From: Minisyncoccia bacterium
GTDB taxonomy: Bacteria > Patescibacteriota > Minisyncoccia > Phycocordibacterales > UBA918
DNA length: 64,000 nucleotides
NCBI GenBank assembly: GCA_046293175.1
Contig: JBKBPM010000001.1
Coordinates: forward strand, 511,847-575,846
Reading direction: 5' to 3'
Every line of letters starts with the position of its first letter. Position 1 is the first letter of the stretch. Shown here piece by piece: positions 15,223 to 45,090 of this stretch. The notes beneath the pieces are model-generated. The model was not told the origin of the DNA, ran no database searches, and saw only the letters and a list, made by a program, of their open reading frames with translations. The position numbers and the translations under genes were made by a program.

Positions 15223-16212
15223 TTAACACGAGACATTTACCTCTCCTCTTCGACCACCCCAATCACAATGCACGTGCCCTGACCCCGAATACATCATTAT
15301 AAAACTAGCTCCAACCGCCCGACATACTCTGACAATATCACATCGACCAGCTCGTCCACCAGCAGAAGTAAGATCAAGCGCTACGCCAGAAGAATGACGA
15401 GAACCGTTACCCCCACGGCTGCACGGCCGAGCAACTGTTCCTTGCTGCTGGCATCGAGGGCACTGATCCCAAAGTTCCGTTTGTCTGGCATCAGATCGGT
15501 ATGAACTGGTAACGCTAAGACTAGGCAGAGATCTTTGCATGGCTGTAAAGCGACCGGCGACGTAAGCTGTCGCCCGGTGATTGCCTTGTCCAGGTATACT
15601 TACCAAAGAACTCTCATTAAAACTACAATTACTTCCGACGGCAGGATTTGGTATAGGCATCCCCGCCGGACCAGGAATGGTGGCTGGAATAATTGTTACA
15701 TCCTCACCTCCTGGAATAGATTCATTTGGTTCAAACGTCACTGGGGTAAACGAGCCCGGGGTTGGTGTCGGCTGAGAATAACACTCCACCGTACTCCAAT
15801 AAAGCCAACCAGTCACCTGCCCATTTGGTATTTGCCCCTCTGAGCCTTCGCGTCCAACCAAACCGCGCATAATGGTGTCAACAATCAGCCACGCTGCCAG
15901 CACAATAATAAGCCCAATAAATGCATTTACAAATCGGTTCTTCGCTTCATCGAGTGCATGATGATTGCCGCCGGAGGTGACGAGGCCAAAACCAGCGTAG
16001 GCGAGGATAACCGCGAAGATAATAAAAAGAAATCCAATGAGCCAGGTGATGAGGCCGTTGGCAAGATGCACTAAGTTACAGGCTGAACAGTCTGGACCAG
16101 AACAGCCGGCGTATTCCGCCAGTGAGGTTTGAGCAATGGCCACGTCCGGCACCACCATTGGTAGAATGAGAGTAAAACTGAAGATAGCTAAAAATAGTCC
16201 GAACCGCATCAT
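15223..16212 (-). CDS. TrbC/VirB2-like two-TM pilin-type domain fused to M15-family (VanY-like) peptidoglycan peptidase
   Basis: 329 aa. Signal peptide, Cys-rich segment, then TM1-GG(N)xxxxExAK-TM2 (AYAGFGLVTSGGNHHALDEAKNR...IGLIIVLAAWLIV). Pro/Thr linker QPTPTPGSFTPVTFEPNESIPG. The C-terminus has SSYRSDARQTELW ... HSSGVALDL ... HVHCDW, matching the LAS/M15 zinc peptidase pattern (SxxR, HxxGxAxD, H). Confidence 0.6.
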   Translation of the reverse strand: MMRFGLFLAIFSFTLILPMVVPDVAIAQTSLAEYAGCSGPDCSACNLVHLANGLITWLIGFLFIIFAVILAYAGFGLVTSGGNHHALDEAKNRFVNAFIGLIIVLAAWLIVDTIMRGLVGREGSEGQIPNGQVTGWLYWSTVECYSQPTPTPGSFTPVTFEPNESIPGGEDVTIIPATIPGPAGMPIPNPAVGSNCSFNESSLVSIPGQGNHRATAYVAGRFTAMQRSLPSLSVTSSYRSDARQTELWDQCPRCQQQGTVARPCSRGGNGSRHSSGVALDLTSAGGRAGRCDIVRVCRAVGASFIMMYSGSGHVHCDWGGRRGEVNVSC

Positions 16213-16217
16213 GATGC

Positions 16218-16721
16218 TTACAATTTTACACTACCGGGACAGAAGCTAAATCGGTAATCAGCACCAGAAGCAGCTTCATCAACATACCCAGGCACACTCA
16301 CGGTGTAATCGAGTCCACACATCTGGGCCTCACTCAGGTTAAGAGTCTTTTTTAGATAGGCTTCGACCGATAGCCGACTTGCTGCGAACGGCTTTTTGAG
16401 AAGTATGATATTAAAATATTTTGTCTCAGCATCAAAAGTAACAATGTACTCGGCTGTTTGGACATCTTCAAAAGTGTTACCTAGAAAATAGTCATTTGTA
16501 TTATATGCAGCTGGAGTGACTTCAGGTAAGGCTAGAAAGTTTTCAACATCAATACTTTTACCGTTTGCTAATGGAAGGGTCACACCGCTATCACTTGGCT
16601 TCGCTACCGAATTATCTGGCCTCGTGATAGAAGCATCCTTTATTAAACTATTATAAAGGATATATACACTGATTGGGATGAAAACAACAAATATAATTGT
16701 AATGACTAAAGAAAATTTCAT
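16218..16721 (-). CDS. hypothetical membrane-anchored/secreted protein (AT-rich gene)
   Basis: 167 aa with an N-terminal TM. Codon usage is more AT-rich than its neighbours. Confidence 0.45.
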   Translation of the reverse strand: MKFSLVITIIFVVFIPISVYILYNSLIKDASITRPDNSVAKPSDSGVTLPLANGKSIDVENFLALPEVTPAAYNTNDYFLGNTFEDVQTAEYIVTFDAETKYFNIILLKKPFAASRLSVEAYLKKTLNLSEAQMCGLDYTVSVPGYVDEAASGADYRFSFCPGSVKL

Positions 16722-16730: not shown

Positions 16731-17663
16731 TTACATCCTACCACCATAGGCACGGACACAAGACGCTGCCCGATTATTGCAACCAGGACAAGTCCAGTCG
16801 CGATAACCACGTGTACGAACTAACCGCACCATCATTTGTATATTACACTGCGCACGCATACAATTTGATCGCCAATCATTACAAGCTCCGGGCGGCGGAT
16901 TGCTTCTCCACGTGGTTCGTGTTATCTGAAACGTACCACAGGCAGTTGAATTAGAACCTGGGTGTGTTTCATTATACGGTGGAGTATTTGGATTACCAGA
17001 ACTCTCAGTCATCGCAATGCAAGACATTACATTTGCCTGTACTGGTGTTAAGCCCGCTGCTTGTAGTGCCGCTACACTACAAGCACTATTTGAAGGACTA
17101 CACTGCACACCGCCACCTGGTCCACCGCCAGAGCCACCGCCAGATAAACTGCCGCCAGTAGCACCGGTAATATAGGTGTAGCTACCTGGTATAACCACCA
17201 CACGATTACCAGGAATCTCAGTATTTGGATCAAAAGTTTGTGGAGTAAAAGTCCCTGGGTCCGGGTTTGGTTGTGCCACACAACTCAGTTCATTCCACAT
17301 CCCAAGTCGTGTCTCACCATCAAGGAGTAACATGCGCATACCGGTGTCAATGAGAAGCCAGCCGGCGAGGACAATCACATAGCCAATAATCATGTTACTA
17401 ATCATTGATTTGGCATCTTCTTTGGCATGGCGATTGCCACCAGAGGTCACAAGCTTAAAGCCAGCGTAGACGATAATAATGGCAGCGACCGTACCAAGAA
17501 TGAGCACGAGCCAAGAAATCACCCGATTGACGAGTTCTACCACATAACACATCTGACAAGCCGGTTCACCCTCACCCCCACAAGGAACAAGACCCGCTGC
17601 ATAGGAAAGCAGTGGCACTGCTACGAGCACCAAAAACAATACACTGCCCCAAAATCGCTTCAT
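16731..17663 (-). CDS. TrbC/VirB2-like two-TM pilin-type domain fused to SLT-type lytic transglycosylase (VirB1-like)
   Basis: 310 aa. The N-terminal 150 aa are about 45% identical to the N-domain of 15223..16212 (VYAGFKLVTSGGNRHAKEDAKSM...IGYVIVLAGWLLIDTGMRML; linker QPNPDPGTFTPQTFDPNTEIPG). Gly-rich spacer. The C-terminus CIAMTESSGNPNTPP...STACGTFQI matches the SLT catalytic Glu-Ser ... GLMQ-type motif. Confidence 0.6.
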   Translation of the reverse strand: MKRFWGSVLFLVLVAVPLLSYAAGLVPCGGEGEPACQMCYVVELVNRVISWLVLILGTVAAIIIVYAGFKLVTSGGNRHAKEDAKSMISNMIIGYVIVLAGWLLIDTGMRMLLLDGETRLGMWNELSCVAQPNPDPGTFTPQTFDPNTEIPGNRVVVIPGSYTYITGATGGSLSGGGSGGGPGGGVQCSPSNSACSVAALQAAGLTPVQANVMSCIAMTESSGNPNTPPYNETHPGSNSTACGTFQITRTTWRSNPPPGACNDWRSNCMRAQCNIQMMVRLVRTRGYRDWTCPGCNNRAASCVRAYGGRM

Positions 17664-18094: not shown

Positions 18095-18787
18095 TTAAAC
18101 TATAATCGCAACGTTTAGAATCTTTGGTTCTGGAGCATATACGCCATATTGAAAAGTGGAGCTACTCACCCATTTGGTATCGAATACCGGACCACCGTAC
18201 CCACAGCCGCCTGACCAGAAACTTTCATGATCTGCTATAGAAACTTTTTTGATGGTTGACATTGTTTCTAAGTCAATAATTGAAATTGTCGTTGTGGGAT
18301 TGTAGTAATCAATTATATTTGTGAGATATCTACCCTCTGGAGACAAATCTTCACCATCAGCATAACTAATAGCAAAATCTGTCTTGAAAAAACTTTTTCC
18401 TTTTATATCAAATCCATACACTAAACTTTCTCTGGAACTATATGTTAATGTTTTCACAAAAATTATTCCCGTGAGTTGTGACCTATAGATAGGTTCAATC
18501 ACCGGACCATATGTTGGTTGTACAGAAAATTGATTTTCAAATATAGTTTGAAGCTCTGTATTTGTTGGTAAAGACGTATTTGTTGCCATTGATGACACTT
18601 GACTTGATGTTGCAATAACTGTCTCCACATTTTGAATCATCACTTTATTTTGAACGAATTCATAACCCACATACCCACCCAAAAGTGGTAGGAGTACGAA
18701 CAATGTGAGTACTAAATATTTTGATAGTGGAGTGACTTTTTTCAACGGCGCTATAAGACTCTCCTCTTCATGCTGTTGCGGTTCCAT
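18095..18787 (-). CDS. hypothetical membrane-anchored protein (AT-rich gene)
   Basis: 230 aa with an N-terminal TM (LVLTLFVLLPLLGGYVGY). AT-rich codon usage. Confidence 0.45.
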   Translation of the reverse strand: MEPQQHEEESLIAPLKKVTPLSKYLVLTLFVLLPLLGGYVGYEFVQNKVMIQNVETVIATSSQVSSMATNTSLPTNTELQTIFENQFSVQPTYGPVIEPIYRSQLTGIIFVKTLTYSSRESLVYGFDIKGKSFFKTDFAISYADGEDLSPEGRYLTNIIDYYNPTTTISIIDLETMSTIKKVSIADHESFWSGGCGYGGPVFDTKWVSSSTFQYGVYAPEPKILNVAIIV

Positions 18788-27515: not shown

Positions 27516-27550
27516 AAATAAAACACCCTCAATCGGGTACTTTATTATTG

Positions 27551-27624
27551 AGACCGAGGCGGGATTCGAACCCGCGCGTGGCGGTTTTGCAAACCGCAGT
27601 GTTAACCGCTTCACCACTCGGTCT
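27551..27624 (-). tRNA. tRNA-Cys(GCA)
   Basis: Acceptor GACCGAG/CTCGGTC, anticodon stem GCGGT/ACCGC with loop TTGCAAA, T-arm GCGGG-TTCGAAT-CCCGC, discriminator U. Confidence 0.8.
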
Positions 27625-27716
27625 GTATGCCCGCTACTATAGCATTATATAGACTGTTTACAAACTAAGATAAATTGGTAAACGTGGATAGTATAATATC
27701 ACTATAAGTTTACCAT

Positions 27717-28211
27717 ATGGCAAAAAAACGTACCTGGACAGAAGCCCAATTAAGACAAGCAGTACATGATTCAAAGAGTATTCGCCAAGTTCTCATTATT
27801 TTGGGACTTATCCCTGCTGGAGGCAACTACCAACACGTTGGACAAACTATAAAAAAGCTTGGGATAGATGACTCACATTTTACAGGTATGGGTTGGCGAA
27901 GTGGACGAACTTTTGATTTTGTCCCTCAGCGAACACTTGAATCTATTCTTCAAAAAAACTCCGATTTTCAAAGTTTCAAATTAAAAAAACGGTTATTTCG
28001 CGAAGGTTTAAAACAACCAAAGTGCGAAATGTGCGGCTGGGCAGAAATATCAAATGATGGTAGGATTCCAGTCGAGCTCGACCACATCAATGGAGATCAC
28101 CGTGATAATCGGCTAGAGAATCTGAGAATTCTATGCCCCAATTGTCACAGTCTTCAACCAACACATCGGGGTCGAAATCAAAAGAAACCGCCGGGGTGGC
28201 GAAATCGGTAG
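27717..28211 (+). CDS. HNH endonuclease
   Basis: 164 aa. HNH motif CEMCGWAE...ELDHINGDHRDNRLENLRILCPNCH. The gene is AT-rich and its last 22 nt overlap the 5' end of tRNA-Leu(TAA). Confidence 0.75.
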   Translation: MAKKRTWTEAQLRQAVHDSKSIRQVLIILGLIPAGGNYQHVGQTIKKLGIDDSHFTGMGWRSGRTFDFVPQRTLESILQKNSDFQSFKLKKRLFREGLKQPKCEMCGWAEISNDGRIPVELDHINGDHRDNRLENLRILCPNCHSLQPTHRGRNQKKPPGWRNR

Positions 28212-28276
28212 ACGCGCAACACTTAAAATGTTGTGAGCGAAAGCTCTTATGGGTTCAAGTCCCATTCCCGGCACCA
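28190..28276 (+). tRNA. tRNA-Leu(TAA), CCA encoded
   Basis: Acceptor GCCGGGG/TCCCGGC, anticodon stem CAACA/TGTTG with loop CTTAAAA, long variable arm, T-arm ATGGG-TTCAAGT-CCCAT, A73, CCA. Confidence 0.85.
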
Positions 28277-28278
28277 TA

Positions 28279-28316
28279 ACAAAACACTCCATGGATATGG
28301 AGTGTTTTGTTATTTT
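28279..28316. terminator. perfect hairpin terminator (copy 1 of a duplicated terminator)
   Basis: aacaaaacactccat-ggat-atggagtgttttgtt followed by attttct. The arms are identical to the hairpin at 29094-29126. Confidence 0.7.
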
Positions 28317-28331
28317 CTAAACCAATCATTG

Positions 28332-28413
28332 TGCCCAGGAGAGGACTTGAACCTCCATGAGTCACCTCGCTTGCTCCTAAGGCAAGTGCGTCTACCAATT
28401 TCGCCACCTGGGC
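28332..28413 (-). tRNA. tRNA-Leu(TAG)
   Basis: Acceptor GCCCAGG/CCTGGGC, anticodon stem CTTGC/GCAAG with loop CTTAGGA, long variable arm, T-loop TTCAAGT, A73. Confidence 0.85.
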
Positions 28414-28503
28414 ACACTGATTACTTTAGCTCTGCTTCACGTTATACGTGTGTGCAAGAGTGTAGCACAGTCAGAAAGCGATTCCAAACAGCCTTTTTAG
28501 CAC

Positions 28504-28532
28504 TTGCCTTCTTTTTATTAATCTTGTATACT
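28504..28532 (+). promoter_or_regulatory. sigma70-like promoter for tRNA-Lys (TTGCCT-17-TATACT)
   Basis: -35 TTGCCT at 28504-28509, 17-nt spacer, -10 TATACT at 28527-28532. The tRNA begins 16 nt downstream. Confidence 0.5.
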
Positions 28533-28547
28533 CTCGCCACCAGAAAT

Positions 28548-28620
28548 GCCTTCTTAGCTCAGTTGGTAGAGCAGCTCCCTCTTAAGGAGACGGTCCAAGG
28601 TTCGAGCCCTTGAGGAGGCA
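28548..28620 (+). tRNA. tRNA-Lys(CTT)
   Basis: Acceptor GCCTTCT/AGGAGGC, D-arm GCTCAGTTGGTAGAGC, anticodon loop CTCTTAA, T-arm CAAGG-TTCGAGC-CCTTG, A73. Confidence 0.8.
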
Positions 28621-28678
28621 CTAAGATATAACAAAAGCACATGACAACATTGTTATGTGCTTTTGTTATAATTCCCCT

Positions 28679-29135: not shown

Positions 29136-30185
29136 CTACGCTGGTCGTAGTGGTGCTTTCTTAAATTGCGCCGGGCGAAAGAAACGGTTGTAGTAGCGTG
29201 CTATCACCTTTTTGGTGCGAGTTGGAAGCTTATCAATCAGCTCACACTTGCGCGAGCAGTAGCCGTGGTACTTCGCCATACAAGTGTCACAACCAAGGAA
29301 CAAAACATGGCAAATTTGGTTCTTACAGTGGTAGTGGGTATCACTTTTATTCACCCGACAAAGATGACAGTGCGAAATAATCTCGTCACTAATGCGTTCA
29401 GACAATCGCTCATCAAAGACGAAATTGGTACCGTGGAATTTATTCGGGAGTCCTTGCTCTTTTACCTGGTGCGCGTAGTCGATAATACCTCCCTTAAGGT
29501 GCCGAACATCAGTAAAACCGTTGTGTTTAAGCCACGCACTCGCCTTCTCGCAACGGATACCACCGGTACAGTAGAGGGCAATCTTTTTGTTCTTGTGCAT
29601 CCGAAGAAGCTCTGGAACAATCGCCAGTTCTTCTCGAAAGGTATCAACCTGTGGTAAGACAGCATTTTCAAAATGACCCACCTCACTCTCATATGCATTG
29701 CGCATATCAACTACTACCGCATCTGGATCATCAATGTACGCATTCATCTCTGCAGCTGTGAGGTAGGCACCGGTATTAGTCACATCAAAGGTTGTATCAT
29801 CAAGTCCATCAGCCACTATCTTCTTACGAACTTTTATGGTGAGTTTATAAAATGATGAAAAGTCTTTTTCTTCAACAGCAATCTTGTATGGTGTACCAGT
29901 GAGTTCCGGTAGCGATTGGAGGAAAGTATCGAGTGCGTCGAAGTTATCAGTGGGGACATTCATTTGAGCATTAATTCCCTCACTAGCCACATAGATACGA
30001 CCAAGACACTCAAGCTCCGCGAGCTTGAGAAAGAGCTGGTTCCGGAAAGCAGTCGGGTCAGCAAGCCGCACATACCGGTAAAACGAGAGGGTCGTGCGGG
30101 GACGAGCTTCACTCGCTACAGCGGCCTTTTTCTCCGCACGAGGCCGCATATCTGCCTTAATCATTGGGGTAGTAGACACAGTCAT
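29136..30185 (-). CDS. trhO: rhodanese-domain tRNA uridine(34) hydroxylase TrhO/YceA family
   Basis: About 350 aa (start uncertain). UPF0176 N-domain, rhodanese active-site loop YCTGGIRCEK, C-terminal Cys cluster. Confidence 0.7.
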   Translation of the reverse strand: MTVSTTPMIKADMRPRAEKKAAVASEARPRTTLSFYRYVRLADPTAFRNQLFLKLAELECLGRIYVASEGINAQMNVPTDNFDALDTFLQSLPELTGTPYKIAVEEKDFSSFYKLTIKVRKKIVADGLDDTTFDVTNTGAYLTAAEMNAYIDDPDAVVVDMRNAYESEVGHFENAVLPQVDTFREELAIVPELLRMHKNKKIALYCTGGIRCEKASAWLKHNGFTDVRHLKGGIIDYAHQVKEQGLPNKFHGTNFVFDERLSERISDEIISHCHLCRVNKSDTHYHCKNQICHVLFLGCDTCMAKYHGYCSRKCELIDKLPTRTKKVIARYYNRFFRPAQFKKAPLRPA

Positions 30186-30307
30186 ACACAAATCTTTATG
30201 CGCCTTATCGTACCACACAATCAAAAATAGGACAGTCAAAAGCGGTTATAGTGGTCAAAATGTGTAAAATATCCATATTTAGAGCCCTACTTGCACCGCC
30301 TCATAAC

Positions 30308-30336
30308 TTGACTTTTTGCACTAAATATGCTATTAT
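30308..30336 (+). promoter_or_regulatory. sigma70-like promoter (TTGACT-17-TATTAT) followed by an approximately 130-nt structured GC-rich leader
   Basis: -35 TTGACT at 30308-30313, -10 TATTAT at 30331-30336. The leader contains nested inverted repeats tgcctaccgg/ccggtaggtgca and cttgg/ccaag. Confidence 0.45.
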
Positions 30337-30477
30337 ACTAAGTGGAATGGGGGCAATGTGCCTACCGGCGTCCCCTTCTTGGTCTGAATGTCCAAGAGCG
30401 GCATCCGGTAGGTGCACCCGCTCACCTTGGTCACGGCAACAGCGCCGGTTGACAACAATATAGCAAAGGAACACAAC

Positions 30478-31989
30478 ATGCTGATGTATATTGCAGCGAT
30501 CCTCCTCGTCATGGGAGTCACCCTCTACTTCTACCAACAGCGACCGCAGCTCAATGGTGTACTTGCAAAAGTCACCTCAGAGCGTGAAAGCGCCATTGGC
30601 ATCAAAGGAATCGTCATTGGACCGGTACAAATGGTCCTTATCCGTTTCCTCGGTGTGCCCATTATCGCTTTCATCATTTCGGCACTTGTTGGATTGCTGG
30701 TGAGCTTTGTCATCGTTGCTTCGACGACAATGACGCTTTTCAGCGCCAGCCAACTCCTCCTCATCGGCCTTGTGGCTATGATCGGTGGCGGTATCATCAC
30801 CGCTGTGCTCATTTGGCCAGAAACTGATGATGACGGGAAACCGCTGGTTGTACCAACAAACACGGTGGCGCCGCTCACCTTCTTTGGCACCCTCTACCGG
30901 ATTTATCTGCTCGAGGGTGACTATGCCTGGTGGGGACGGAAGCTGTTCTTCAGCCGGTCGAAAGTCGCACTCCGCGACTTTACAACACGGGTAAAAGACG
31001 GTGATGTTGCTGACGGCTTCTTCAAGCGCACGCCCATTCCCTTCAACCTCTACAACGAACGACCGAAAGAAAAGGATGGGAAAACCATCATCGGAAGTTC
31101 GCTCATCGAGGGGGTGGCCAAAGGCGGGAGCCCGGTGAAAGCCGAGCTCCTGACGACATTTGTCAGCTTTGACCCCCATCGCGCTCTCCGCAACGATGAT
31201 CCGGGTCTTGAAATTGCTGAACGTGCTCGTTCGATGTTTCGGACCTGCATCAGCTATTTCACTTCGGTCGACAATGCAGTGGCTAAAGACGCCATGGCAC
31301 ACCTCATCGAAGGCAAGACTATCGTCGTGGCTTTCCTCCTGAAATCGGCCGATCAGCTGGCGGAAGGTTCAATCGTCCGGGACACGGGAGGCGAACCCAC
31401 CTACTTCATTGTCGAAGCGAAGGCAGGCGAAGACCTCAAGAATCCTAAGGATCTGAAGAAGGCGACCGCCAGGACCATTCGGGAGTACAAGAAACATCTC
31501 GATGCGCACCTGACCAAAACGATGCGTGACGCTGTCACCATCGAAGTGGAAAGGGACCAGAAAGATGGCTCAACGACCAAAGAAAAAGAGTATGTCATCG
31601 AAACCCGGTCGGTTGAGATTGGCCTCAACGAAATCCTCGAGAAGAACGGTTTCTACCTGACGTCGGCCTCGGTCGGTCATGTGGAAATCAGCGAGAACCT
31701 GTCTCGCTTGGCGGTGGCTGCTGAAATGCAGACATATGAAAACACCGTCCAGGTAAGGAGTGCCCAAGCGACTGCGGCGGCACTCGAAAAACTGAAGAGT
31801 TCTCCCGAACAGATGAATGACCCCGCCTACCTCGACAAAATCGGTATTGCTGCGGCATCCGATCCGGGAGGCAAGTCGCAATTCATTCGGGCGTCGACCG
31901 ACAACAAGCTTGCCACGGTCGGCGTCGCTGCGGCCGTGGTCAACCAACAACCGTCGCAGAAACCTGCGTCGGAAGCAGCAAAGGACTGA
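30478..31989 (+). CDS. hypothetical large membrane protein (4 N-terminal TM helices plus soluble about 350-aa domain), GC-rich island gene 1
   Basis: About 503 aa from the Met preceded by aaaggaac. No recognisable catalytic motif. Local GC is about 57-58% against about 50% in the flanks. Its stop lies 2 nt before the next gene's ATG. Confidence 0.55.
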   Translation: MLMYIAAILLVMGVTLYFYQQRPQLNGVLAKVTSERESAIGIKGIVIGPVQMVLIRFLGVPIIAFIISALVGLLVSFVIVASTTMTLFSASQLLLIGLVAMIGGGIITAVLIWPETDDDGKPLVVPTNTVAPLTFFGTLYRIYLLEGDYAWWGRKLFFSRSKVALRDFTTRVKDGDVADGFFKRTPIPFNLYNERPKEKDGKTIIGSSLIEGVAKGGSPVKAELLTTFVSFDPHRALRNDDPGLEIAERARSMFRTCISYFTSVDNAVAKDAMAHLIEGKTIVVAFLLKSADQLAEGSIVRDTGGEPTYFIVEAKAGEDLKNPKDLKKATARTIREYKKHLDAHLTKTMRDAVTIEVERDQKDGSTTKEKEYVIETRSVEIGLNEILEKNGFYLTSASVGHVEISENLSRLAVAAEMQTYENTVQVRSAQATAAALEKLKSSPEQMNDPAYLDKIGIAAASDPGGKSQFIRASTDNKLATVGVAAAVVNQQPSQKPASEAAKD

Positions 31990-31991
31990 CC

Positions 31992-33356
31992 ATGAAAGCG
32001 GTACTCGCAAGCACAAACACCAAACTGCAAGGTCTGGTGCAATCGAAGTGGATGGTCTTGGGCCTGCTTGGCCTCGGCATCATCCTGCTCATCCTCAATC
32101 TTTTTGTCGGGGGCGATTCCGCCCCCGTGAATCCGACGACAGTGGAAGCGCCGGCCGTTGATGCGGTTGAAGCACCTGCTGCTCCAGCGATCGACCTCGA
32201 GGTGAATACGGAAGGTTTCTTCGCCTCCATCGGTGAAGGAAACTTCTGGCTTGCAATGACCATCATTTTGGCGATTCTCATGACCGCCAACTGGGCTAGC
32301 AAGCTCATGAAAGAACCACCGGCAAAAGTCTTCGACAAGGCCAGCAAAACCTGGGTGGAAAATAAGAACACCAACCCAGTACCTCGCTTCAAGGCAAGCT
32401 TTGTCTGGCTCATCGCCGGCGTGCTCATGGTCGTCGTCGGATTGTGGGGAATCTACCCTGCCTTCTTCGGCGAAAACAACGAAATCTCCGAAATCTTCGG
32501 TGAACTCGGACTCTTTGACATCATCGCCGTCGGCGCGATCGCCATCACGCTCGTCGTCGGTGCTGTCAAATACATGGGGATTGCCGGCAATGCTTCTGCC
32601 TACTTCTTCATGGTGGGGTGGGTTCTCCTCGTGTTTTTCGCCATCCTCTACCTGATTGGTATCTTCCTTGCCCCTGATGCGACTACTCTCATCATCGAGG
32701 CCGTCAAGAACGATGCACAAAGCGCCGCTGCGAGCATCGTCGAAACGACCGAAGAGACCAGCTCTATCAAATGGGAGGCACTCTTCGACCCTGAGACCTG
32801 GACAAACATCGCCATCATCGCCATCCTCACATTGGCGCCGGTGGTGGTGTTCCACCAATACATCTCAAAGAACAAGCTGGTGGTGGTGCCGGTCGCCATC
32901 GTGGCAATGATGATTCTGTTCGGCAGCATCTACAAGATACTGATCGAATACGAACCGGCACGAGAGGTCATTGAAGACGTGAGCGGCGCCCTTGGCGCCG
33001 CTAACGAAAAGTTCAACCCGACCCTGGGCGAAAGTCTGAGCCTTCGGCTCTATAAAGATGATCTCGGGCGAGCCAGCACGATTTCGCTCGGGATGCACGA
33101 TGACTTGACTGTCTTTGTGCCCGAAGACGGCTATGCCCTCTGTATCGACGCAAGCGCAAGCTTCAAACGCCGTTACGAGGATCGCGGCTGGTTTGACCCG
33201 ACCCATGTGGTCGATATCACCAGCTACAACCGGAACATGGCCAACCGCCTCACAGTGGCAGAAGCCATGAAGCCGGGGCTCAAGGCCGAAGGCATCGAGC
33301 GGGTTACCTACACCATCATCCTCATGAGGACCGGTGGTGTCTGTAACCCTCAGTGA
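31992..33356 (+). CDS. hypothetical polytopic membrane protein (about 8 TM), GC-rich island gene 2
   Basis: 454 aa. Translationally coupled to the upstream gene. Followed by a strong terminator. Confidence 0.55.
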   Translation: MKAVLASTNTKLQGLVQSKWMVLGLLGLGIILLILNLFVGGDSAPVNPTTVEAPAVDAVEAPAAPAIDLEVNTEGFFASIGEGNFWLAMTIILAILMTANWASKLMKEPPAKVFDKASKTWVENKNTNPVPRFKASFVWLIAGVLMVVVGLWGIYPAFFGENNEISEIFGELGLFDIIAVGAIAITLVVGAVKYMGIAGNASAYFFMVGWVLLVFFAILYLIGIFLAPDATTLIIEAVKNDAQSAAASIVETTEETSSIKWEALFDPETWTNIAIIAILTLAPVVVFHQYISKNKLVVVPVAIVAMMILFGSIYKILIEYEPAREVIEDVSGALGAANEKFNPTLGESLSLRLYKDDLGRASTISLGMHDDLTVFVPEDGYALCIDASASFKRRYEDRGWFDPTHVVDITSYNRNMANRLTVAEAMKPGLKAEGIERVTYTIILMRTGGVCNPQ

Positions 33357-33427
33357 TGCGAGCCGTCGAATGAAACGATCGGCCCGACATCACCTGTTCT
33401 TTTGCGCCTCGAAGGCGCACCACGCAG

Positions 33428-33470
33428 CGAACCCCTCCGTCAGTCTATCGACGGTGGGGTTCTTTTTTTA
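33428..33470 (+). terminator. rho-independent terminator ending the GC-rich island
   Basis: aacccctccgtc-agtctat-cgacggtggggtt followed by ctttttttat. Confidence 0.7.
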
Positions 33471-33480: not shown

Positions 33481-33873
33481 TTAGCAGGGACCAGAACCGG
33501 TACAAGGAGGCGGTACGTAGAGGGAAGCATCAATACAATTAGCGTTAAGTGGGTCACTCGCACAATCTAACGTATCTTGTAGACCAAAAGTCCCAGCGGC
33601 AATACCAAGGATACTGTAAGCCACGAGCATAATAAACATCCCCACTATCCCCCAGAGAATATGCATCTGGCCAGTCTCACGGGCACTACTTTCGGCACTG
33701 TGGCTGATGTACTCGTAGCAGCCGTAGAGGAAGATGAGGAGCGCAAGCCCCATCAAAAGCATTATCAGCGGGTATAAAATTACTTCATTGAGTCGCTCAA
33801 CAAAGTTATAAGCTTCACGCATACCGGGTGTTGGTCCTTGAGCGTACGCAATTGATACAAAAAATCCAAACAT
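33481..33873 (-). CDS. TrbC/VirB2-like small two-TM pilin-type protein (paralogue 5)
   Basis: 130 aa from MFGFFVSIAYAQG. Signal peptide, TM1, charged loop (HSAESSARETGQ), TM2. Confidence 0.5.
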   Translation of the reverse strand: MFGFFVSIAYAQGPTPGMREAYNFVERLNEVILYPLIMLLMGLALLIFLYGCYEYISHSAESSARETGQMHILWGIVGMFIMLVAYSILGIAAGTFGLQDTLDCASDPLNANCIDASLYVPPPCTGSGPC

Positions 33874-33934
33874 AAACAACAACAGTATAACACAAAAGCC
33901 CCGCGAGGGGCTTTTGTGTAGACTGTGTTTGGTA

Positions 33935-34312
33935 CTAGTTACCAAGAGTTGGCACCTCTGGAGTAGTGTCCAGTGAATCTTCAAGACCAAGACCATTTGA
34001 GAGAATGTTCACAATACCCCAAAAGGCGAGAATAACTACATATCCAGCAATGGCGTACATGATGAGACTGCGGCCATTTTCCTTGGCTTCTTCGTTTGCA
34101 CCACCACGAATGAAGTAGTTAAACATTCCCCACACAAACATGAGGAAACCGATGGCCAGAATAAATGGAATAACATAGCCACTAATGAAAGCAAGGATGG
34201 CTGTCATTGCGCCACCAATATCTCCACCATCGCCGCCATTGAGTACAGCTGCAGAGGCTGGAAAAGCCACCGCGAGGCTAGCCAATACAACAAGAGAAAG
34301 GAATGATTTCAT
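33935..34312 (-). CDS. TrbC/VirB2-like small two-TM pilin-type protein (paralogue 4)
   Basis: 125 aa. Signal peptide AFPASA, then FIRGGANEEAKENGRSLIMYAIAGYVVILAFWGIV matching the GGNxxAKEDAK-TM2 core of the 15223 and 16731 N-domains. Confidence 0.6.
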   Translation of the reverse strand: MKSFLSLVVLASLAVAFPASAAVLNGGDGGDIGGAMTAILAFISGYVIPFILAIGFLMFVWGMFNYFIRGGANEEAKENGRSLIMYAIAGYVVILAFWGIVNILSNGLGLEDSLDTTPEVPTLGN

Positions 34313-34477
34313 ATGATTCTAAATACGATAAAAGAAGCGGATATGTATGCTTCATATATTATTATACACGAAAAGTAAGATTTTTAAAGGGTTTCAATCC
34401 CGGGTGTGCAAAAGTTACATGAACAACAGTAATTAATCACAAGTCTTCAAAAAAAGAACAGTAGCGAGGCGCGAAAG

Positions 34478-34585
34478 CGAAGAAATGTGAGATGTGAAGA
34501 AACACGGGGCGTTTCTGCAAGACTCATTGAGCATTTTGCGAATGAAATGATGCAAAAGGCCAATGAGTGGACAGTTTCTGTAAGA
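34478..34585 (+). repeat. structured repeat, copy C (subfamily 2, orphan; between pilin-like genes)
   Basis: gtgagatgtgaagaaacacggggcgtttctgcaagactcattgagcattttgcgaatgaaatgatgcaaaaggccaatgagtggacagtttctgtaag. About 80% identical to copy D at 41943-42030. Hairpins gaaac/gtttc, actcattg/caatgagt and ttttgc/gcaaaa. Confidence 0.6.
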
Positions 34586-34651
34586 AACTTTTGTATGATG
34601 AACGTTTCTGATGCGAACCGCAACCAAGCTAATGACTTTTTATGGAGACTT

Positions 34652-34900
34652 TTAATTGCCGGTAAGAAGAGCGAGTATCCCCCAAATCGATACCATGATA
34701 ATCATCACCACCACGGCCGTGATAGCTATTGTCGTACCCTCCTCACGCTTACTTGGATCATCAGCATGAATGACCCAGGCGTCTATCATCTTCCACAGTA
34801 CAACGAGGAAGGCAATGGCAAAGATGAAGGTGATAGCCAGATTAACAAACTCCAAAAAGAAGCTTACTAGTCCAGCGAAGTCTGTCGGGGTGGAGTCCAT
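34652..34900 (-). CDS. small two-TM membrane protein, probable TrbC/VirB2-like paralogue 6 (no signal peptide)
   Basis: 82 aa. TM1, DDPSKREEG loop, TM2. Confidence 0.4.
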   Translation of the reverse strand: MDSTPTDFAGLVSFFLEFVNLAITFIFAIAFLVVLWKMIDAWVIHADDPSKREEGTTIAITAVVVMIIMVSIWGILALLTGN

Positions 34901-34921
34901 AATAATTACACAGGCTCCACC

Positions 34922-35308
34922 TTAGGCGGCGAAACTGTCAACGGTATTCCTGATAATTTCTGCAATAGCAACCGCTGCAAGAATGAGTACTCCGCCGATG
35001 ATTGCGTAGGTGAAGGTGGTGGTGGCTTCTTCGATCTGTCTCGGATTACCCTGCGCGGTTACGTACTTAAAGCCAGCCAAGATGATAAAGAGAACAATAA
35101 TCGGAATCATGAGCACCATAAAGATGTTGAGGATGGCGATAAGCAGTTCCTCGATAGAGTTTACGCGGAGTGGGTTATCGAGAGTGACTGGTTCAATCGA
35201 AGGAGTACCACCTGTAGTTTGCTGAGCCTGCACATAGGTAGTTAAAAAACCAAAAAAGAGAGTGGGAAGACACATAACCAAGAAACCAATTTTTTGAAGT
35301 ATACTCAT
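34922..35308 (-). CDS. TrbC/VirB2-like small two-TM pilin-type protein (paralogue 3)
   Basis: 128 aa. Signal peptide, then ILAGFKYVTAQGNPRQIEEATTTFTYAIIGGVLILAAVAI, which aligns with VYAGFKLVTSGGNRHAKEDAKSM... of the 16731 gene. Confidence 0.6.
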   Translation of the reverse strand: MSILQKIGFLVMCLPTLFFGFLTTYVQAQQTTGGTPSIEPVTLDNPLRVNSIEELLIAILNIFMVLMIPIIVLFIILAGFKYVTAQGNPRQIEEATTTFTYAIIGGVLILAAVAIAEIIRNTVDSFAA

Positions 35309-35330: not shown

Positions 35331-36632
35331 CTAATACTCCTGACTCATCCGTCCGACCGCATCCTGGGCTGCTTCACCTGGCCGGCTGCGATTCGCGAGG
35401 ATATCTTCTACCATCTGCGTGAAGATACTGTCAACCACGCGGGGTGTTGGCGATAACCAGCCGCGAGCAACCACCGCTGAGGCGTAAATAATTCTACCAT
35501 AGGTATCACCCGAACCGGCCGCGAGTGAAGATCGATGCGCTGGTGCCATCCCAAGATAATCCGCCATCGACTTAGAAAAATCAGATCCGCCAATGAGTTG
35601 CATTGCAAGATACGCTCCTGATTTGTTATTGGAAGACTTCAACAGCGAGAGACCATAAAATGTTCCATACGTGCGGCGAACCGTAGCAGCGGCACCCTGT
35701 GGTACTTCGGCGATATCGAAGTTGAGGTTTGGATTTTGAGCAGCGAGATCACGGGCTTCACTACCCTTCCCAAAATAGAGAATGAGATCTTCAGACAGAA
35801 AGGCATCCCGATCAGTAGGTTTGGCACGGTTCCAACTGTAGAGAGGGTTACTTGGACTCGCAAAATTGGTGTAGAAGGTCACCGCGGCTTCGAGTGGCAT
35901 TCGGCTCCGGTCTGGCGTCTGATTCAGACTCATAATATAGCGGTCGTCTGAACCTTCACTGACAAGACTACTGCCACCTTGGATCGTAAGCATCGAAAGA
36001 ATGAGTCCGGCATTGGTCACATTACGGTACTCACCAAAAGCAATGGGACTTAAGGTAATATTGCGATTAAAATCACGCTCAACAAAGGTCGGAACGATAT
36101 CGTTCACAATTGATTCCCATGTACGCGGAGCTGCGAGGACATTTTTACTTGAGAGAATATCCCGATTCCAGTACATCACCAGAGGGTCAATCGCAATTGG
36201 GTAACCATACACACCATCTGTCATTGCCCAAATCTCGGCCCCGTCAATGTAGAGGTTTTTAAAATCGCGGGCAGGAAAATTGTCGTACGGAATTGGTTGG
36301 ATTTTACTCCGGTACGACACCAATTCCTCGTGTGGCAATAAGAGGAGGTCGGGGCCACGTCCTTCAGCCAAAGCATTGAGCACCTCACTATCAAATGTAT
36401 CTCTACTCATCTCTTTGTATTGGATTGAACGATACGCCGGGTTGACTTTTATAATTGGTGCCATCACCGTATTAAAAGCATCATCAGGAAGAGTCCCCCA
36501 GATTTCTACGGTACCAAGCGCTACTTTGGTTGTATCAGCCGGTGGTGTATAGGTCGCTAAAAGACCAAGCGCTAACAGGCCTAAGAGACCAAAGCCGAGG
36601 ACAAGAAATAATTCAAAAGGTCTAAGTTTCAT
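35331..36632 (-). CDS. extracellular solute-binding protein (ABC transporter SBP family 1-like)
   Basis: 433 aa. N-terminal TM/signal and a periplasmic-binding fold pattern (DLLLLPHEELVSY..., PLVMYWNRDIL...). Overlaps the upstream methyltransferase gene by 4 nt. Confidence 0.55.
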   Translation of the reverse strand: MKLRPFELFLVLGFGLLGLLALGLLATYTPPADTTKVALGTVEIWGTLPDDAFNTVMAPIIKVNPAYRSIQYKEMSRDTFDSEVLNALAEGRGPDLLLLPHEELVSYRSKIQPIPYDNFPARDFKNLYIDGAEIWAMTDGVYGYPIAIDPLVMYWNRDILSSKNVLAAPRTWESIVNDIVPTFVERDFNRNITLSPIAFGEYRNVTNAGLILSMLTIQGGSSLVSEGSDDRYIMSLNQTPDRSRMPLEAAVTFYTNFASPSNPLYSWNRAKPTDRDAFLSEDLILYFGKGSEARDLAAQNPNLNFDIAEVPQGAAATVRRTYGTFYGLSLLKSSNNKSGAYLAMQLIGGSDFSKSMADYLGMAPAHRSSLAAGSGDTYGRIIYASAVVARGWLSPTPRVVDSIFTQMVEDILANRSRPGEAAQDAVGRMSQEY

Positions 36633-37252
36633 AGTTTTCGAAATGAGACACCATAGTGGTAACTACCAGCTGGGTACTCGCGTTCGTAAATAAAGTAGTT
36701 GGCTTCAAAGAGATCAATGGTGATATCACGCGGTCGCACCATCTCTGGTGTTGGACCAAGGCCATCAAAACTATCTATCCAGTCAACGACGTATACAATA
36801 CCATGTGGACGTAAGGTTCGATACACTTCAGCTATGGCAGCAGCGAGGTCTTCGATCTGGTAGAGGGTGTTAATAATCACCACAAAGTCAGCTGCCGCAT
36901 CGGGCAAATTTGTGCCGCCACGACTGGTAGCGTCTGCCCACACCACCTCAACATTATCGTAACCAAGCTCACGAGCACGCTTATAGAGTGAATTAACCAG
37001 CGGTCGCTGTACCTCCACCGCAATTACCTTGCCAGCCGAACCAACCTTACGGGCGAGGTGCGGGATGTACACACCTTGGCCAGCGCCATAATCAACCACC
37101 ACCGAACCTGGCTCGATGTGAAAGTGTGAGGACACGAGACGTGGCTCCAAAAAGCGCGGCAGTGTCACTGATTCCATACTTCTAGTATACAGCCTGGCTG
37201 CACCGACTTTTCCTACCTCTGGGGATGTGCAAAACACCAACGACGTAAACAA
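36629..37252 (-). CDS. class I SAM-dependent methyltransferase
   Basis: 207 aa (start possibly the internal Met at 37177). Motif I VVDYGAGQGVYIPHLA. Confidence 0.65.
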   Translation of the reverse strand: MFTSLVFCTSPEVGKVGAARLYTRSMESVTLPRFLEPRLVSSHFHIEPGSVVVDYGAGQGVYIPHLARKVGSAGKVIAVEVQRPLVNSLYKRARELGYDNVEVVWADATSRGGTNLPDAAADFVVIINTLYQIEDLAAAIAEVYRTLRPHGIVYVVDWIDSFDGLGPTPEMVRPRDITIDLFEANYFIYEREYPAGSYHYGVSFRKL

Positions 37253-37459: not shown

Positions 37460-39931
37460 CTAAACGAAGACGATTGAGGCTATTGAATCGCCAGCCCTCA
37501 TCTTCATCACCCGCACTCCTTGCGTATCACGCCCTAGGGTCGGCACGTCCTTCAGCGGCAGCTTGATTACCTGGCCTTTCTTGCTCATGATAACAAGCTC
37601 ACCTTCGGCACGCTCTTCTGGATTAAGCACAATTGCACCAACTACCACGCCGGTCTTATCGGTCACTTTGGCAGTCTTGATACCCGATCCACCACGGTTT
37701 TGGACCTTGTATTCCTTAATTGGTGTCGTCTTACCGTAACCATCTTCGGTCACGACAAGGATCTCGGCCTTGTTGTCACCCTTCTTTACCACATCGGCGG
37801 AAACAACAACATCACCCTTTCCAAGCTTCATACCAGCGACACCGGCAGCAATACGACCCATTTCGCGAACATCACTCTCCTTAAAGCGAATGGATTGCCC
37901 TTTCTTGGTCACCAGCGAAATATCATCACCTTTACCCACAAACTTGGCTGCAATAAGTGAATCATCTTCCTTGAGGTTAATAGCGATCAGGCCACTACGA
38001 CGCACATCCTTGAAGGCAGCGGCGTCAGACTTCTTTGCGACACCATTTTTGGTAATCATCATGAGACTCCAATCGCCTGCCCATTCTTCTTTGCGGACCG
38101 CGAGCACTGAGGTCACGCGCTCGTCTTGCGTCATCGCAAGGAAATTCATGATTGACTTGCCCTTCGTCGCGCGGCGACCTTCTGGGATTTCGTACATCTT
38201 ACTCTGATAGACTTTGCCCTTATCAGTGAAGAAAAGGAGGTCGCTATGAGCAGAGGTAGTGATGAGGTTTGTTACCACGTCTTCTTCTTTGGTACTGAGG
38301 TCAATCACCCCTACGCCACCACGTTTTTGGGTGCGGTATTCCTCGGGGTTGGTACGCTTGACGTAACCACCTTGGGTGAGCACCAGCACACTCTCATTGT
38401 CCGCAATAAGATCCTCCTGACTCATCATCTTGACCCCACCCTTCACAATCTTGGTGCGACGATCGTCACCGTACTTTTCGGCCACCTCAAGGAGCTCTGT
38501 CTTCACGAGACCGAGCATCTTAGCCTTACTCTTGAGAATTGCTTCAAGTTCCTTAATGAGCTTCTGCACTTCCTTGAGCTCGTCTTCAATCTTCTTGCGT
38601 TCGAGGCCAGCGAGCTTCTGGAGACGCATATCGAGAATCGCCTGCGCCTGGATGGCCGAGAATTTGAACTGCTTCATGAGGCCAGCATGCGCCGTTGGCA
38701 CATCTTTGGCAGCTCGGATGAGTTTGATAATTGCATCAATATGATCAAGTGCCTTCTTGAGACCAAGGAGGATATGTTCACGGTCTTGCGCCTTCGTGAG
38801 GTCGTATTGGGTACGGCGGCGAATCACCTCAACGCGATGCTTCACGTATTCTTCAAGAATAAGCTTTAGGGACACCGTCTGTGGAATACCATCAACGAGC
38901 GCCACCATATTGTAGTGGAAGGTTTCCTCGAGTTGGGTGTGTTTGTAGAGCTTATTGAGGATCGTCTGCGGCTGAGCCCCACTCTTGAGTTCAATCACGA
39001 CTCGAATGTCGTTGGTTGATTCATCACGCATTTCGCGGATACCTTCAATTTTCTTTTCGCGAACGAGATCCGCAATCTTTTCTTGCAAGTCGGCCTTGTT
39101 CACACGGAATGGAATTGAAGTAATGATGATACTGAAGTTACCTTTTTTATCTTCTACGATTTCCGCTTCACCGCGTACAACAACCCCACCTTTACCGTGA
39201 GTGTAAGCATGAGAAATATCCTTTTGATTAAAGACGACCGCTCCCATCGGAAAGTCTGGTCCTTTAATGAACTTAAGGAGGTCGTCGGTAGTCGCGTCTG
39301 GGTTATCGACAAGATGTTCAACCGCAGCGGCAATTTCTCGGAGGTTGTGGGGCGGAATATTCGTCGCCATACCCACCGCAATACCAAGAGACCCGAGAAG
39401 GAGTAGGTTTGGTACAGCTGCTGGTAATACGACCGGTTCTTTCTTTGTACCATCGTAGTTTGGTCGCCAATCAACGGTGTCCTTTTCGAGGTCACGCAAC
39501 ATCTCTTCAGCCAAACGAGACATCTTCGCCTCAGTGTATCGATACGCAGCCGCACCATCACCGTCGATGGAGCCAAAGTTTCCTTGGCCAAGCACCAGTG
39601 GATAACGCGTCGCAAATGGTTGCGCAAGCTTTACCATCGCCTCGTATACCGAGGCGTCTCCATGGGGGTGGAAGCTACCGAGTACGTCTCCCACTACCGT
39701 CGCTGATTTCTTGAACTTGGCACTCGCCGTAAGACCATTGAGACGCATTGAGTAGAGAATACGGCGGTGGACAGGCTTCAGACCATCACGAATATCTGGC
39801 AAGGCTCGTGACGTGATCACGGACATCGCATAGTCGAGGTATGCTCGCTCCATTTCGCCCGTGATTCCCTGCGTCACAATCCCTCGTTCCGGGAATGGCA
39901 TGGTGTCAGCAACTTCAGTCTTTTTTGGCAT
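37460..39931 (-). CDS. gyrA: DNA gyrase subunit A
   Basis: 823 aa. [24 protein letters not shown], active-site region [13 protein letters not shown]-terminal beta-pinwheel repeats. No gyrB adjacent. Confidence 0.95.
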
Positions 39932-43587: not shown

Positions 43588-45090
43588 ATGAAGAAAATCG
43601 AGGTCTATTATGACGGCGACTGTCCGATGTGTACGGCTTTTGCAGACAATCTCAATTCATCATCAAAATCTGATACATTTGACCTCAATAATATCCACGA
43701 AAATTCTCTAGCCGGCGTTACACTTGAAGACCTATCTAAAGAAATGTATGTAAAAGATACCGATGGCACATTGTACAAAAGTGCTGATGCTATTTTAAAA
43801 GTTATTGGCACGTTTCCGAAATGGCGGTGGGTCGAAAAACTAGGTCGCTTACCAATCATCAATGGAGGTTTGCATATTGGTTACAAGCTAGTATCACAAA
43901 ATCGCTATTACCTTTTTGGTGGTATGGGTCGCCTATTTTGGCTCAAGGCTGTTCTGGCGGTAGGTTTTATTGCCGGTCTCCTCTTATCGACAAAACTTTG
44001 GTTAACCGACAGAACCTACCCACTGACACCTGTACTTTCTAACCTGCCACAACCCATTTTCCCATTTGATTATATTTTGTATGGCAGTCTAATTGTATGT
44101 TTATTTTTTACAATTTTTCATAGAAATTTCAAACGATTCTTGATTGGATCAATCGTTTTGGTGGCTTTCCTTCTTTTCCTTGATCAGTCGCGGTTGCAAC
44201 CCTGGGTCTATCAGTACACAACGATGCTACTTGTGTTAAGTGTCTTTTCTTGGCAGGTTAACGACCGCAGAAGCGTACCGTATTTACTCAATATTAGTCG
44301 CTTCGTTGTCGCTACTATTTATTTTTACAGTGGTCTACAGAAACTAAATCCTGAATTTATCGTTTTGACCTTTCCCTGGATGATGCAGCCTATAACTCAC
44401 CAACTTTCACTAACTTCGAGCGATGTCATACTGATGGGAATTACTGTCCCTATTATTGAAATGCTTATTGGACTCGCTTTACTAACTTGCCGATTTAGAA
44501 ATTACGGAATTTTCTTAGCTACTATGATGTGTCTATTTGTCCTTACTACACTTGGGCCAACTGGACATCATTGGAATACTGTCGTCTGGCCTTGGAATAT
44601 AGCTCTTCTCATCATGGTTTTTGTGCTATTTTACCGCACCCAACAATTATCATTGCTTAACTTACTAAGCATTATAAAACAGCCGCTCGGCATCACTACC
44701 ATTATTATATTTGGCATTATGCCCATGACATACTTTTTCCACATTTGGGACTCATACCCTTCTTGGTCTCTCTATTCTGGAACCACTAATCTAGCGAAAA
44801 TAGTACTGCCTGATGAAATGGTTGGTCGTCTACCTGCAGATATCCAAATGCTTATTGTTTTGTCACCAGAAGATAAAGCGACACTCTCTATATCTGATTG
44901 GTCATATCATGAATTAAAAGTTCCTCCCTATCCAGAAACACGTATTTACAATAATATTGGGCATCATTTCTGCACAAAATATGCCCCTGGCGATGTAGAT
45001 GTGTCAATTGTTATGCGAGGTAGAACGGGATGGACTCATGTTGCAGGTAAGAGTACATCCACTTGCCAACAATACTCAAAAGCACCCTAA
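43588..45090 (+). CDS. DCC-family thiol-disulfide oxidoreductase (DUF393) N-domain fused to about 380-aa polytopic membrane domain (HTTM-like?)
   Basis: 500 aa. The N-terminal YYDGDCPMC motif is typical of DUF393/DCC. At least 8 TM helices follow. The gene is markedly AT-rich (about 38% GC) compared with its neighbours. Confidence 0.5.
   Translation: MKKIEVYYDGDCPMCTAFADNLNSSSKSDTFDLNNIHENSLAGVTLEDLSKEMYVKDTDGTLYKSADAILKVIGTFPKWRWVEKLGRLPIINGGLHIGYKLVSQNRYYLFGGMGRLFWLKAVLAVGFIAGLLLSTKLWLTDRTYPLTPVLSNLPQPIFPFDYILYGSLIVCLFFTIFHRNFKRFLIGSIVLVAFLLFLDQSRLQPWVYQYTTMLLVLSVFSWQVNDRRSVPYLLNISRFVVATIYFYSGLQKLNPEFIVLTFPWMMQPITHQLSLTSSDVILMGITVPIIEMLIGLALLTCRFRNYGIFLATMMCLFVLTTLGPTGHHWNTVVWPWNIALLIMVFVLFYRTQQLSLLNLLSIIKQPLGITTIIIFGIMPMTYFFHIWDSYPSWSLYSGTTNLAKIVLPDEMVGRLPADIQMLIVLSPEDKATLSISDWSYHELKVPPYPETRIYNNIGHHFCTKYAPGDVDVSIVMRGRTGWTHVAGKSTSTCQQYSKAP

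Follow-up and report, generated by a model that had tools for sequence, protein, structure and literature searches.

What kind of system do the two adjacent genes for membrane proteins at positions 30478-33356 form in the 64,000-nucleotide stretch of Minisyncoccia bacterium DNA analysed here (contig JBKBPM010000001.1; the whole stretch is called the window below), and how did they come to stand there? We regard it as probable that they make up a vertically inherited operon of the Patescibacteria, in which a divergent SPFH (stomatin/prohibitin/flotillin/HflK-C) scaffold, the product of gene 1, is combined with a partner of ~7 transmembrane helices, the product of gene 2, and which has a conserved promoter and a folded leader. 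The kind of system is ordinary, namely an SPFH scaffold operon; its form is unusual and previously unrecognised, and its conserved leader is unclassified. SPFH scaffolds serve membrane organisation and membrane-protein quality control in all domains of life. We found nothing in the literature on SPFH proteins in the Patescibacteria, or candidate phyla radiation (CPR). Both open reading frames (ORFs) lie exactly where an earlier note on this DNA, made from the sequence without database searches, had placed them, and the coding features are these:

30466-30470, + strand: Shine-Dalgarno sequence of gene 1, AAGGA, with the ATG 7 nt further on (direct reading)
30478-31989, + strand: gene 1, 503 amino acids (aa), ORF call
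30478-30816, + strand: hydrophobic N-terminal region of gene 1, residues 1-113
30835-31692, + strand: predicted SPFH alpha/beta domain of gene 1 with insertions, residues ~120-405
31693-31791, + strand: predicted long helix of gene 1, 33 residues (406-438)
31981-31985, + strand: Shine-Dalgarno sequence of gene 2, AAGGA, inside the 3' end of gene 1
31992-33356, + strand: gene 2, 454 aa, ORF call

Consistent with the earlier note, sequence libraries recognise neither protein, there being no Pfam or NCBIfam family for either. For gene 1, Pfam, NCBIfam, PADLOC and PHROGs were all without a match, and a word-indexed search returned only 12 homologues; searching 1.84 billion representative proteins with a profile yielded 116 full-length relatives of 400-690 aa. 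With an alignment of 66 relatives, AlphaFold2 modelled gene 1 at a predicted local distance difference test score (pLDDT) of 91.1 and a predicted template modelling score (pTM) of 0.78, superseding an earlier 12-sequence model that had a pLDDT of 56 and already pointed to SPFH. When the model was compared with the PDB using Foldseek, the 50 best matches were all SPFH or vault-shoulder structures (50 of 50; best E 1.4e-7), and ~200 residues of gene 1 align with full-length cage subunits. Profile comparisons point the same way: among PDB sequences, the family profile matched stomatin of P. horikoshii at E 3e-4 and prohibitin at E 1.4e-3, hhalign placed gene 1 residues 144-259 on residues 22-121 of QmcA (E 1.1e-3), and 17 of the 66 family members match Band_7 below threshold (best E 1.2e-3). 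Gene 1 also displays the element order of the SPFH/Band 7 superfamily (i.e., an anchor, then the SPFH domain, then a long helix), with a multi-pass anchor that is atypical. The anchor comprises hydrophobic helices at residues 1-20, 44-82 and 90-113, three to four in all, where the earlier note had claimed four; additional beta insertions interrupt the SPFH domain at about residues 282-322 and 354-377, and the C-terminal tail is partly helical. Judged by its modelled fold, gene 1 is a very divergent SPFH membrane protein.

The two genes are closely spaced. The stop codon of gene 1 (TGA, 31987-31989) is followed by two nucleotides, cc, and then by the ATG of gene 2 at 31992, which is the 2-nt separation reported earlier. 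Elsewhere, a gene in the position of gene 2 trails gene 1 at each of the 13 other distinct loci, beginning from -4 to +3 nt after it if the call at locus L003 is set aside (there the second gene is called at +48 nt, as compared to +2 at the near-identical locus L004), and among orthologues the spacing is either a 4-nt overlap or a 2-3-nt gap. These loci came mostly from exact-protein look-ups, genome and metagenome scans having given only three. All of the downstream genes complete enough to align (alignment A7) have the same N-terminal motif as gene 2, and a purine run resembling a Shine-Dalgarno sequence lies upstream of gene 1 at all loci compared. We read the pair as an operon because of the 2-nt gap, the separate Shine-Dalgarno sequence of gene 2, a gene order like that of qmcA-ybbJ and the linkage at other loci, and the data support a two-gene, translationally coupled membrane-protein unit. 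The long antisense ORFs noticed previously do run across the operon (343, 241, 162 and 148 aa).

Gene 2, as far as its sequence tells, is a fast-evolving orphan polytopic membrane protein. Nothing in Pfam, NCBIfam, PADLOC, PHROGs or the PDB sequences matched it, it had only four close homologues, and a profile built from 12 partners of related loci added a single protein. Remote-homology comparison (Foldseek on the predicted structure, and hhalign) led to SPFH for gene 1, and gene 2 matched nothing in sequence comparisons; nor did hhalign relate gene 2 to gene 1 (probability 0.8%). Hydropathy and charge distribution predict ~7 transmembrane helices, rather than the eight first proposed, with the N-terminus inside and the C-terminus outside. 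An acidic Pro/Ala-rich loop (residues 47-84) is predicted to be external, as is a C-terminal soluble domain of ~130 aa that contains two Cys (32952-33353). The N-terminal anchor carries the conserved motif SKW..GIILLxLNLFxGGDSAPV; this motif and the C-terminal Cys are all that is kept across the gene 2 loci. Gene 2 and its counterparts measure 330-454 aa, the number of transmembrane helices varies among orthologues, and in some of these half of the protein is replaced by an Ala/Glu-rich helix.

The operon is old, vertically inherited and specific to the Patescibacteria (Paceibacteria and relatives). All named relatives of gene 1 are labelled Patescibacteria, Pacebacteria or Kaiserbacteria, and the gene 2 product is identical to a protein labelled 'Candidatus Paceibacteria bacterium'. 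The gene neighbourhood of the operon has a conserved order: a divergent TrhO-like rhodanese gene, the pair itself, three to eight convergent genes resembling type IV secretion system (T4SS) pilins, a solute-binding protein, a methyltransferase and GyrA. This order holds wherever flanks are available, down to 28-30% gene 1 identity (L017 and L018), and among genomes with the same neighbours gene 1 identity ranges from 28 to 56%. Core genes of the window include TopA, RelA/SpoT, ParB, ClpB, IF-2, FtsZ and GyrA, beside a cysteine-desulfurase-like aminotransferase, tRNAs, YigZ, the TrhO-like rhodanese and a P-type ATPase. We conclude that descent was vertical because synteny persists at 28-30% identity, core genes surround the operon, its codon usage is ordinary, and its excess of G+C (GC), described below, is shared.

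Two features of this neighbourhood deserve description in their own right. In the window, the genes convergent to the operon encode four small T4SS_pilin-like (PF18895) membrane proteins (33481-35308, - strand), beyond which lie the solute-binding protein (35331-36632), the methyltransferase (36629-37252) and GyrA (37460-39931); the same block stands beside the SPFH pair in L001, L002, L003-5 and L017, which may be a functional linkage or mere conserved gene order. On the other side, the interval that separates the rhodanese gene from the SPFH operon has received PemK, RelB/YafQ toxin-antitoxin or NYN-domain genes, at places that vary from genome to genome (L002 5140-5732; L012 122-672; L003 295-795; L011 2267-2866). 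This intergenic site seems to tolerate small insertions, with the promoter and leader left intact.

How the unit might work is suggested by analogy with HflK/C-FtsH, QmcA-YbbJ, stomatin-aquaporin, prohibitin and flotillin. Gene 1 would form an oligomeric ring or cage attached to the membrane, which would enclose a membrane-protein partner or organise it, and gene 2 would be the enclosed partner or client. Transcription would start at a conserved, strong extended -10 promoter and run through a leader of 135 nt. The elements involved in expression are as follows:

30307-30336, + strand: sigma-70 promoter, -35 CTTGACTTTT (TTGACT 30308-30313) and -10 TATTAT (30331-30336), from a consensus scan
30349-30421, + strand: leader domain 1, a long imperfect hairpin (minimum free energy folds, covariation, covariance model)
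30434-30447 and 30448-30456, + strand: leader domain 2, consisting of the hairpin CGGC-AACAGC-GCCG and the box GUUGACAAC, respectively (folds, locus comparison)
33403-33419, + strand: smaller hairpin upstream of the terminator
33429-33469, + strand: intrinsic terminator, GAACCCCUCCGUC...GACGGUGGGGUUC, a 12-bp G+C hairpin then U7

The promoter described in the earlier note (TTGACT-17-TATTAT) is present at 30308-30336, but the match by itself is at chance level, the consensus scan having found 3 matches as compared to 4.0 expected. We nevertheless take it as real because it is conserved at 14 related loci, where the -35 (C/A)TTGACTTTT and the -10 TATGCTAtnAT are nearly invariant; the window has a spacer of 17 and an extended -10 TG at 30328-30329. 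At the other end, a strong terminator does close the unit, as proposed (hairpin 33429-33462 then T7), and its region folds at a minimum free energy of -53.3 kcal/mol (z -5.05).

The leader described previously as ~130 nt long with nested inverted repeats is borne out as a 5' untranslated region (UTR) of ~135 nt with nested helices (-55 kcal/mol, z -2.5). In domain 1, a G-rich 5' side and a C-rich 3' side, CCCGCUCAC, form helix P1, followed inward by an internal loop, helix P2 (UGUGCCUACCGG/CCGGUAGGUGCA) and a tip of variable length; an outer helix between 30337-30344 and 30425-31 is possible. Across the 14 loci, the G-rich strand on the 5' side is GGAAUGGGAGGG or GAGAGGAGGG; its C-rich pairing partner, CCC(U)GCCCAC or CCCGUCCUC, lies 40-80 nt further downstream, and the inner helix is built on CCC/GGG, with a tip of 4-40 nt. 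An A-rich linker then leads to a second hairpin of variable sequence, which is absent from L019. This hairpin precedes or includes the box, with three pairing registers in different lineages. At other loci the box reads CUUUGACAA(C), its TTGACA core being invariant in 14 of 14 loci, and the element, (C)UUUGACAA, sits 13-25 nt before the ATG. The Shine-Dalgarno sequence is unpaired in the leader folds, and the folding z of 12 leaders ranges from -1.1 to -5.6.

RNAalifold, applied to full-length leader alignments made with MAFFT, found only four pairs. We therefore rely here on two other alignments: one of 12 leaders in which the variable tip was replaced by GAAA and the sequences were aligned by sequence alone, the P1/P2 model being scored only afterwards (A8), and, as a check on it, a covariance-model alignment of the real sequences (A9). 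In A8, 82.9% of cells in the P1/P2 model are standard pairs, as compared to 72.9% in shuffled alignments and 37-55% in slid controls, and nine pairs are changed on both sides, as compared to 5.1 and 2-4, respectively; none of 500 shuffles reached nine. A9 gave similar figures. A covariance model (R1) matches the window at 30337-30434 (E 1.4e-5) and has exactly one match per locus at all 12 of the closer loci, always just upstream of gene 1; it missed L018 and L019, and its only other match in 155 kb was a 10-bit noise match. Rfam, in turn, assigned the leader to no family: the Rfam 15 gathering scan of the window returned tRNAs only, a scan of 30150-30600 at E<=10 only a mir-450 noise match, and a scan of eight related loci at E<=5 nothing for the leaders save RT-19 noise (26.7 bits as compared to a gathering score of 78). 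These comparisons support the leader as a conserved, structured candidate regulatory RNA outside known RNA families. To our knowledge, few cis-regulatory RNAs are known in Patescibacteria, and we know of no identifiable counterpart of the invariant UUUGACAA box.

In layout, the leader resembles riboswitch and attenuator leaders as well as 5' stabilisers of the ompA/aprE type, since in each a conserved structured domain is followed by a small hairpin beside the ribosome-binding site; it differs from all of these in having no Rfam match and no evident ligand, antiterminator or sequestered Shine-Dalgarno sequence. Our own preference, which is a tentative one, is that a conserved trans-acting factor (a protein or small molecule) would recognise domain 1, and that translation initiation or read-through would depend on domain 2 and the box; the hairpin would in addition stabilise the 5' end of the mRNA.

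A leader with no regulatory role, in which a stable 5' hairpin protects a highly expressed mRNA and the boxes reflect constraint at the DNA level (promoter-proximal elements, or the divergent trhO promoter region), strikes us as doubtful. The hairpin does start ~10 nt or less from the likely transcription start, none of the predicted folds sequesters the Shine-Dalgarno sequence, and the unit has a strong, conserved promoter and a high GC content at third codon positions (GC3). However, a stabiliser needs structure rather than sequence, and GGGAGGG/CCCGCCC, GGAAU and UUUGACAA stay fixed while the proteins drop to 24-30% identity; moreover, the box lies ~110 nt past the transcription start, too distant for a promoter element.

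That the leader is a genuine riboswitch, with domain 1 as a metabolite or ion aptamer and domain 2 (the hairpin and U-run) as a terminator-type platform, we consider unlikely. The layout would suit one: behind a conserved, structured 5' domain come an A-rich linker and, just before the Shine-Dalgarno sequence, a G+C hairpin that runs into UUU(U)G (U6 in L019). The leader also shows covariation in its helices and a sequence conserved far more than the coding region. The conserved nucleotides, however, lie mainly in helices rather than in junctions, the tip ranges from 4 to 40 nt in length, and there is neither an Rfam family match nor any hint of a ligand from gene context. As for an intrinsic-terminator attenuator, a hairpin occurs at every locus except L019, which has a 6-nt U-run without a separate hairpin, and the U-run spans 2-6 nt overall, most loci having 2-4 nt and the window 2 nt. 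Of the riboswitch or attenuator suggested in the earlier note, then, the conserved, structured candidate regulatory RNA stands, but with a 2-nt U-run in the window and no antiterminator pairing found.

Three further candidates for this region were discarded. A second promoter with its -35 at the TTGACA box lacks a following -10, and in L002 and L017 the box stands no more than 13-16 nt from the ATG; a leader peptide would use an AUG in GGAAUGGG that is missing from L009-L011, L014 and L015; and an independent RNA gene (signal recognition particle RNA or 6S RNA) is at odds with the negative Rfam result and the variable tip length.

Several points weigh against our reading of the locus as a whole. 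Gene 1 itself has no match to Pfam Band_7 (PF01145) at E<=1, and the side of the membrane on which its SPFH domain lies depends on whether residues 44-82 cross once or twice (three as compared to four transmembrane helices). Ring or cage assembly of gene 1, which by analogy is most likely, is putative, and so is the interaction that would most likely make gene 2 its partner or client. For the leader, transcription probably starts near 30343, a position inferred from the sequence; the compensatory changes mostly separate one clade (L009-L011) from the rest and so represent few independent events; and G/C-triplet repeats permit alternative registers in the helices. Intrinsic termination at the leader box is unlikely in the window because only two U precede the box.

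The closest known relative in organisation is E. coli qmcA-ybbJ, which pairs a stomatin-like protein of the SPFH1 group with NfeD (PDB 8z5g) in the same gene order, with a 4-nt overlap in E. coli. The NfeD gene occupies this slot in classical SPFH1, SPFH2 and SPFH5 operons (PMC2636767). In our locus, an SPFH gene likewise stands beside a coupled gene for a membrane partner, with no NfeD domain detectable in that partner at the sequence level; gene 2 is, by sequence comparison, in the operon slot of NfeD without being detectably NfeD. Unlike QmcA-YbbJ and the P. horikoshii PH1511/PH1510 stomatin operon, gene 1 has no Band_7 Pfam match, three to four hydrophobic helices at its N-terminus rather than one, and insertions in its SPFH domain, and its partner has 454 aa, ~7 transmembrane helices and no NfeD signal, as compared to a 150-aa NfeD with three transmembrane helices. 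In contrast to the HflK/HflC-FtsH and prohibitin cages, the operon has no second SPFH paralogue, gene 2 being unrelated to gene 1; of those ORFs of the window that were scanned, none was identified as FtsH. Finally, unlike the flotillins (FloA/FloT, YuaG-YuaF) and FliL, gene 1 lacks the long Ala/Glu repeat region of the flotillin type, and the operon context is neither flagellar nor of the sigma-W type.

Could gene 2 then be a cryptic, extremely divergent NfeD, so that the locus would be a classical SPFH-NfeD operon in which a C-terminal OB-fold (oligonucleotide/oligosaccharide-binding fold) docks onto the SPFH ring? Its position and coupling are those of ybbJ beside qmcA, the general layout of transmembrane helices followed by a small C-terminal soluble domain is the same, and NfeD partners such as YuaF can diverge past sequence recognition (PMC2636767). 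We nonetheless think it improbable. Among the 12 gene-2 proteins, none has a Pfam match at E<=1 to the NfeD domain (PF01957), which ends in an all-beta OB-fold, and hhalign gives gene 2 a probability of only 0.1% against E. coli YbbJ/NfeD. The size is also wrong, with 330-454 aa and ~7 transmembrane helices as compared to the 140-150 aa and three hydrophobic stretches of NfeD (PMC2636767); furthermore, the C-terminal domain with its two Cys is predicted to be extracellular, and the Ala/Glu-rich helix takes the place of half the protein in some orthologues.

The same low standing applies to the boldest extension of our reading. In it, the leader would represent a novel RNA class that responds to a ligand or protein and is the first to be specific to Patescibacteria; it would control a CPR-specific SPFH cage whose client, a surface protein with seven transmembrane helices, has replaced NfeD, and the deeply conserved linkage to the pilin-like genes and solute-binding protein would mark a single cell-surface or host-interaction module of episymbionts. 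We would be surprised if this extension held in full.

The composition of the operon bears on its origin. Gene 1 and gene 2 have GC contents of 54.3% and 55.3%, below the 57-58% given in the earlier note, and the remainder of the window has 48.7%, where ~50% had been given for the flanks; 56-59% is reached by several other genes of the window. The surplus sits in third codon positions, with a GC3 of 0.635 in gene 1 and 0.705 in gene 2 as compared to a mean of 0.51 (standard deviation 0.09). At all seven orthologous loci tested (L001, L002, L004, L006, L010, L011 and L017), the pair likewise lies 2.5-12 GC points above its flanks; in L002, for example, the two genes have 53.5% and 55.6% and the flanks 43.7%. 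In the loci nearest to the window, this surplus is mostly third-position at any genome GC (40-49%). Because the excess recurs at each of these loci, we conclude that it is an inherited property of the operon. It may result from synonymous-site selection if the unit is highly expressed, and high expression is what the conserved GC3 excess together with the strong promoter suggests.

By tetranucleotide composition, the 3-kb stretch from 30501 is the most deviant of the window (z 4.4), whereas in synonymous codon usage the two genes are typical of the window (z -0.39 for gene 1 and +0.13 for gene 2), so that the atypical composition pointed to earlier holds by one measure and fails by the other. 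The view that a horizontally acquired GC-rich island here carries a two-component membrane system of a categorically new kind, a view which draws on the tetranucleotide signal, on the 5-6 GC points over the window and on the silence of Pfam, NCBIfam, PADLOC and PHROGs on both proteins, is in our judgment very improbable and already largely refuted by the SPFH fold of gene 1, the synteny and promoter-leader kept across genomes at 24-56% protein identity, the ordinary codon usage, the GC excess in seven of seven orthologous loci tested, and the core genes that flank the unit without mobile-element genes. Probable horizontal acquisition, as proposed in the earlier note, is therefore not upheld: the same neighbours are found at 28-56% gene 1 identity, and the GC excess is seen in all orthologues tested.

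Within the window, three genes of 36-40% GC, as compared to a window mean of 49%, are better candidates for foreign origin than the operon (16218-16721, 18095-18787 and 43588-45090); in the product of the last, a DCC1-like thiol-disulfide oxidoreductase is joined to a MauE-like membrane domain. In synonymous codon usage, the most atypical ORF of the window (z -3.5) is one of 132 aa at 8617-9015 (+ strand), which has no Pfam match and may not be a real gene.

Pfam does not detect the family defined by this locus, which comprises ~116 clusters at 50% identity, and the unusual multi-pass anchor and the non-NfeD partner broaden the known range of SPFH operons. Gene 1 and gene 2 are a candidate cage-client pair for structural work, and the leader adds a structured 5' UTR that is well conserved and Rfam-negative. 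More generally, an operon can be locally enriched in GC3 as a conserved trait, and such enrichment need not point to horizontal transfer.

Two observations concern other parts of the window. Two genes on the - strand (15223-16212 and 16731-17663) join a T4SS_pilin-like N-terminal domain to a cell-wall hydrolase domain, an unusual fusion; one has a VanY/M15 peptidase as its hydrolase part, the other an SLT_3 lysozyme-like domain. The region 27550-28621 contains four tRNA genes (Cys, Leu-taa, Leu-tag and Lys), with an HNH-endonuclease ORF (27717-28211) between tRNA-Cys and tRNA-Leu, and L002 has an HNH_3 ORF in a similar position.

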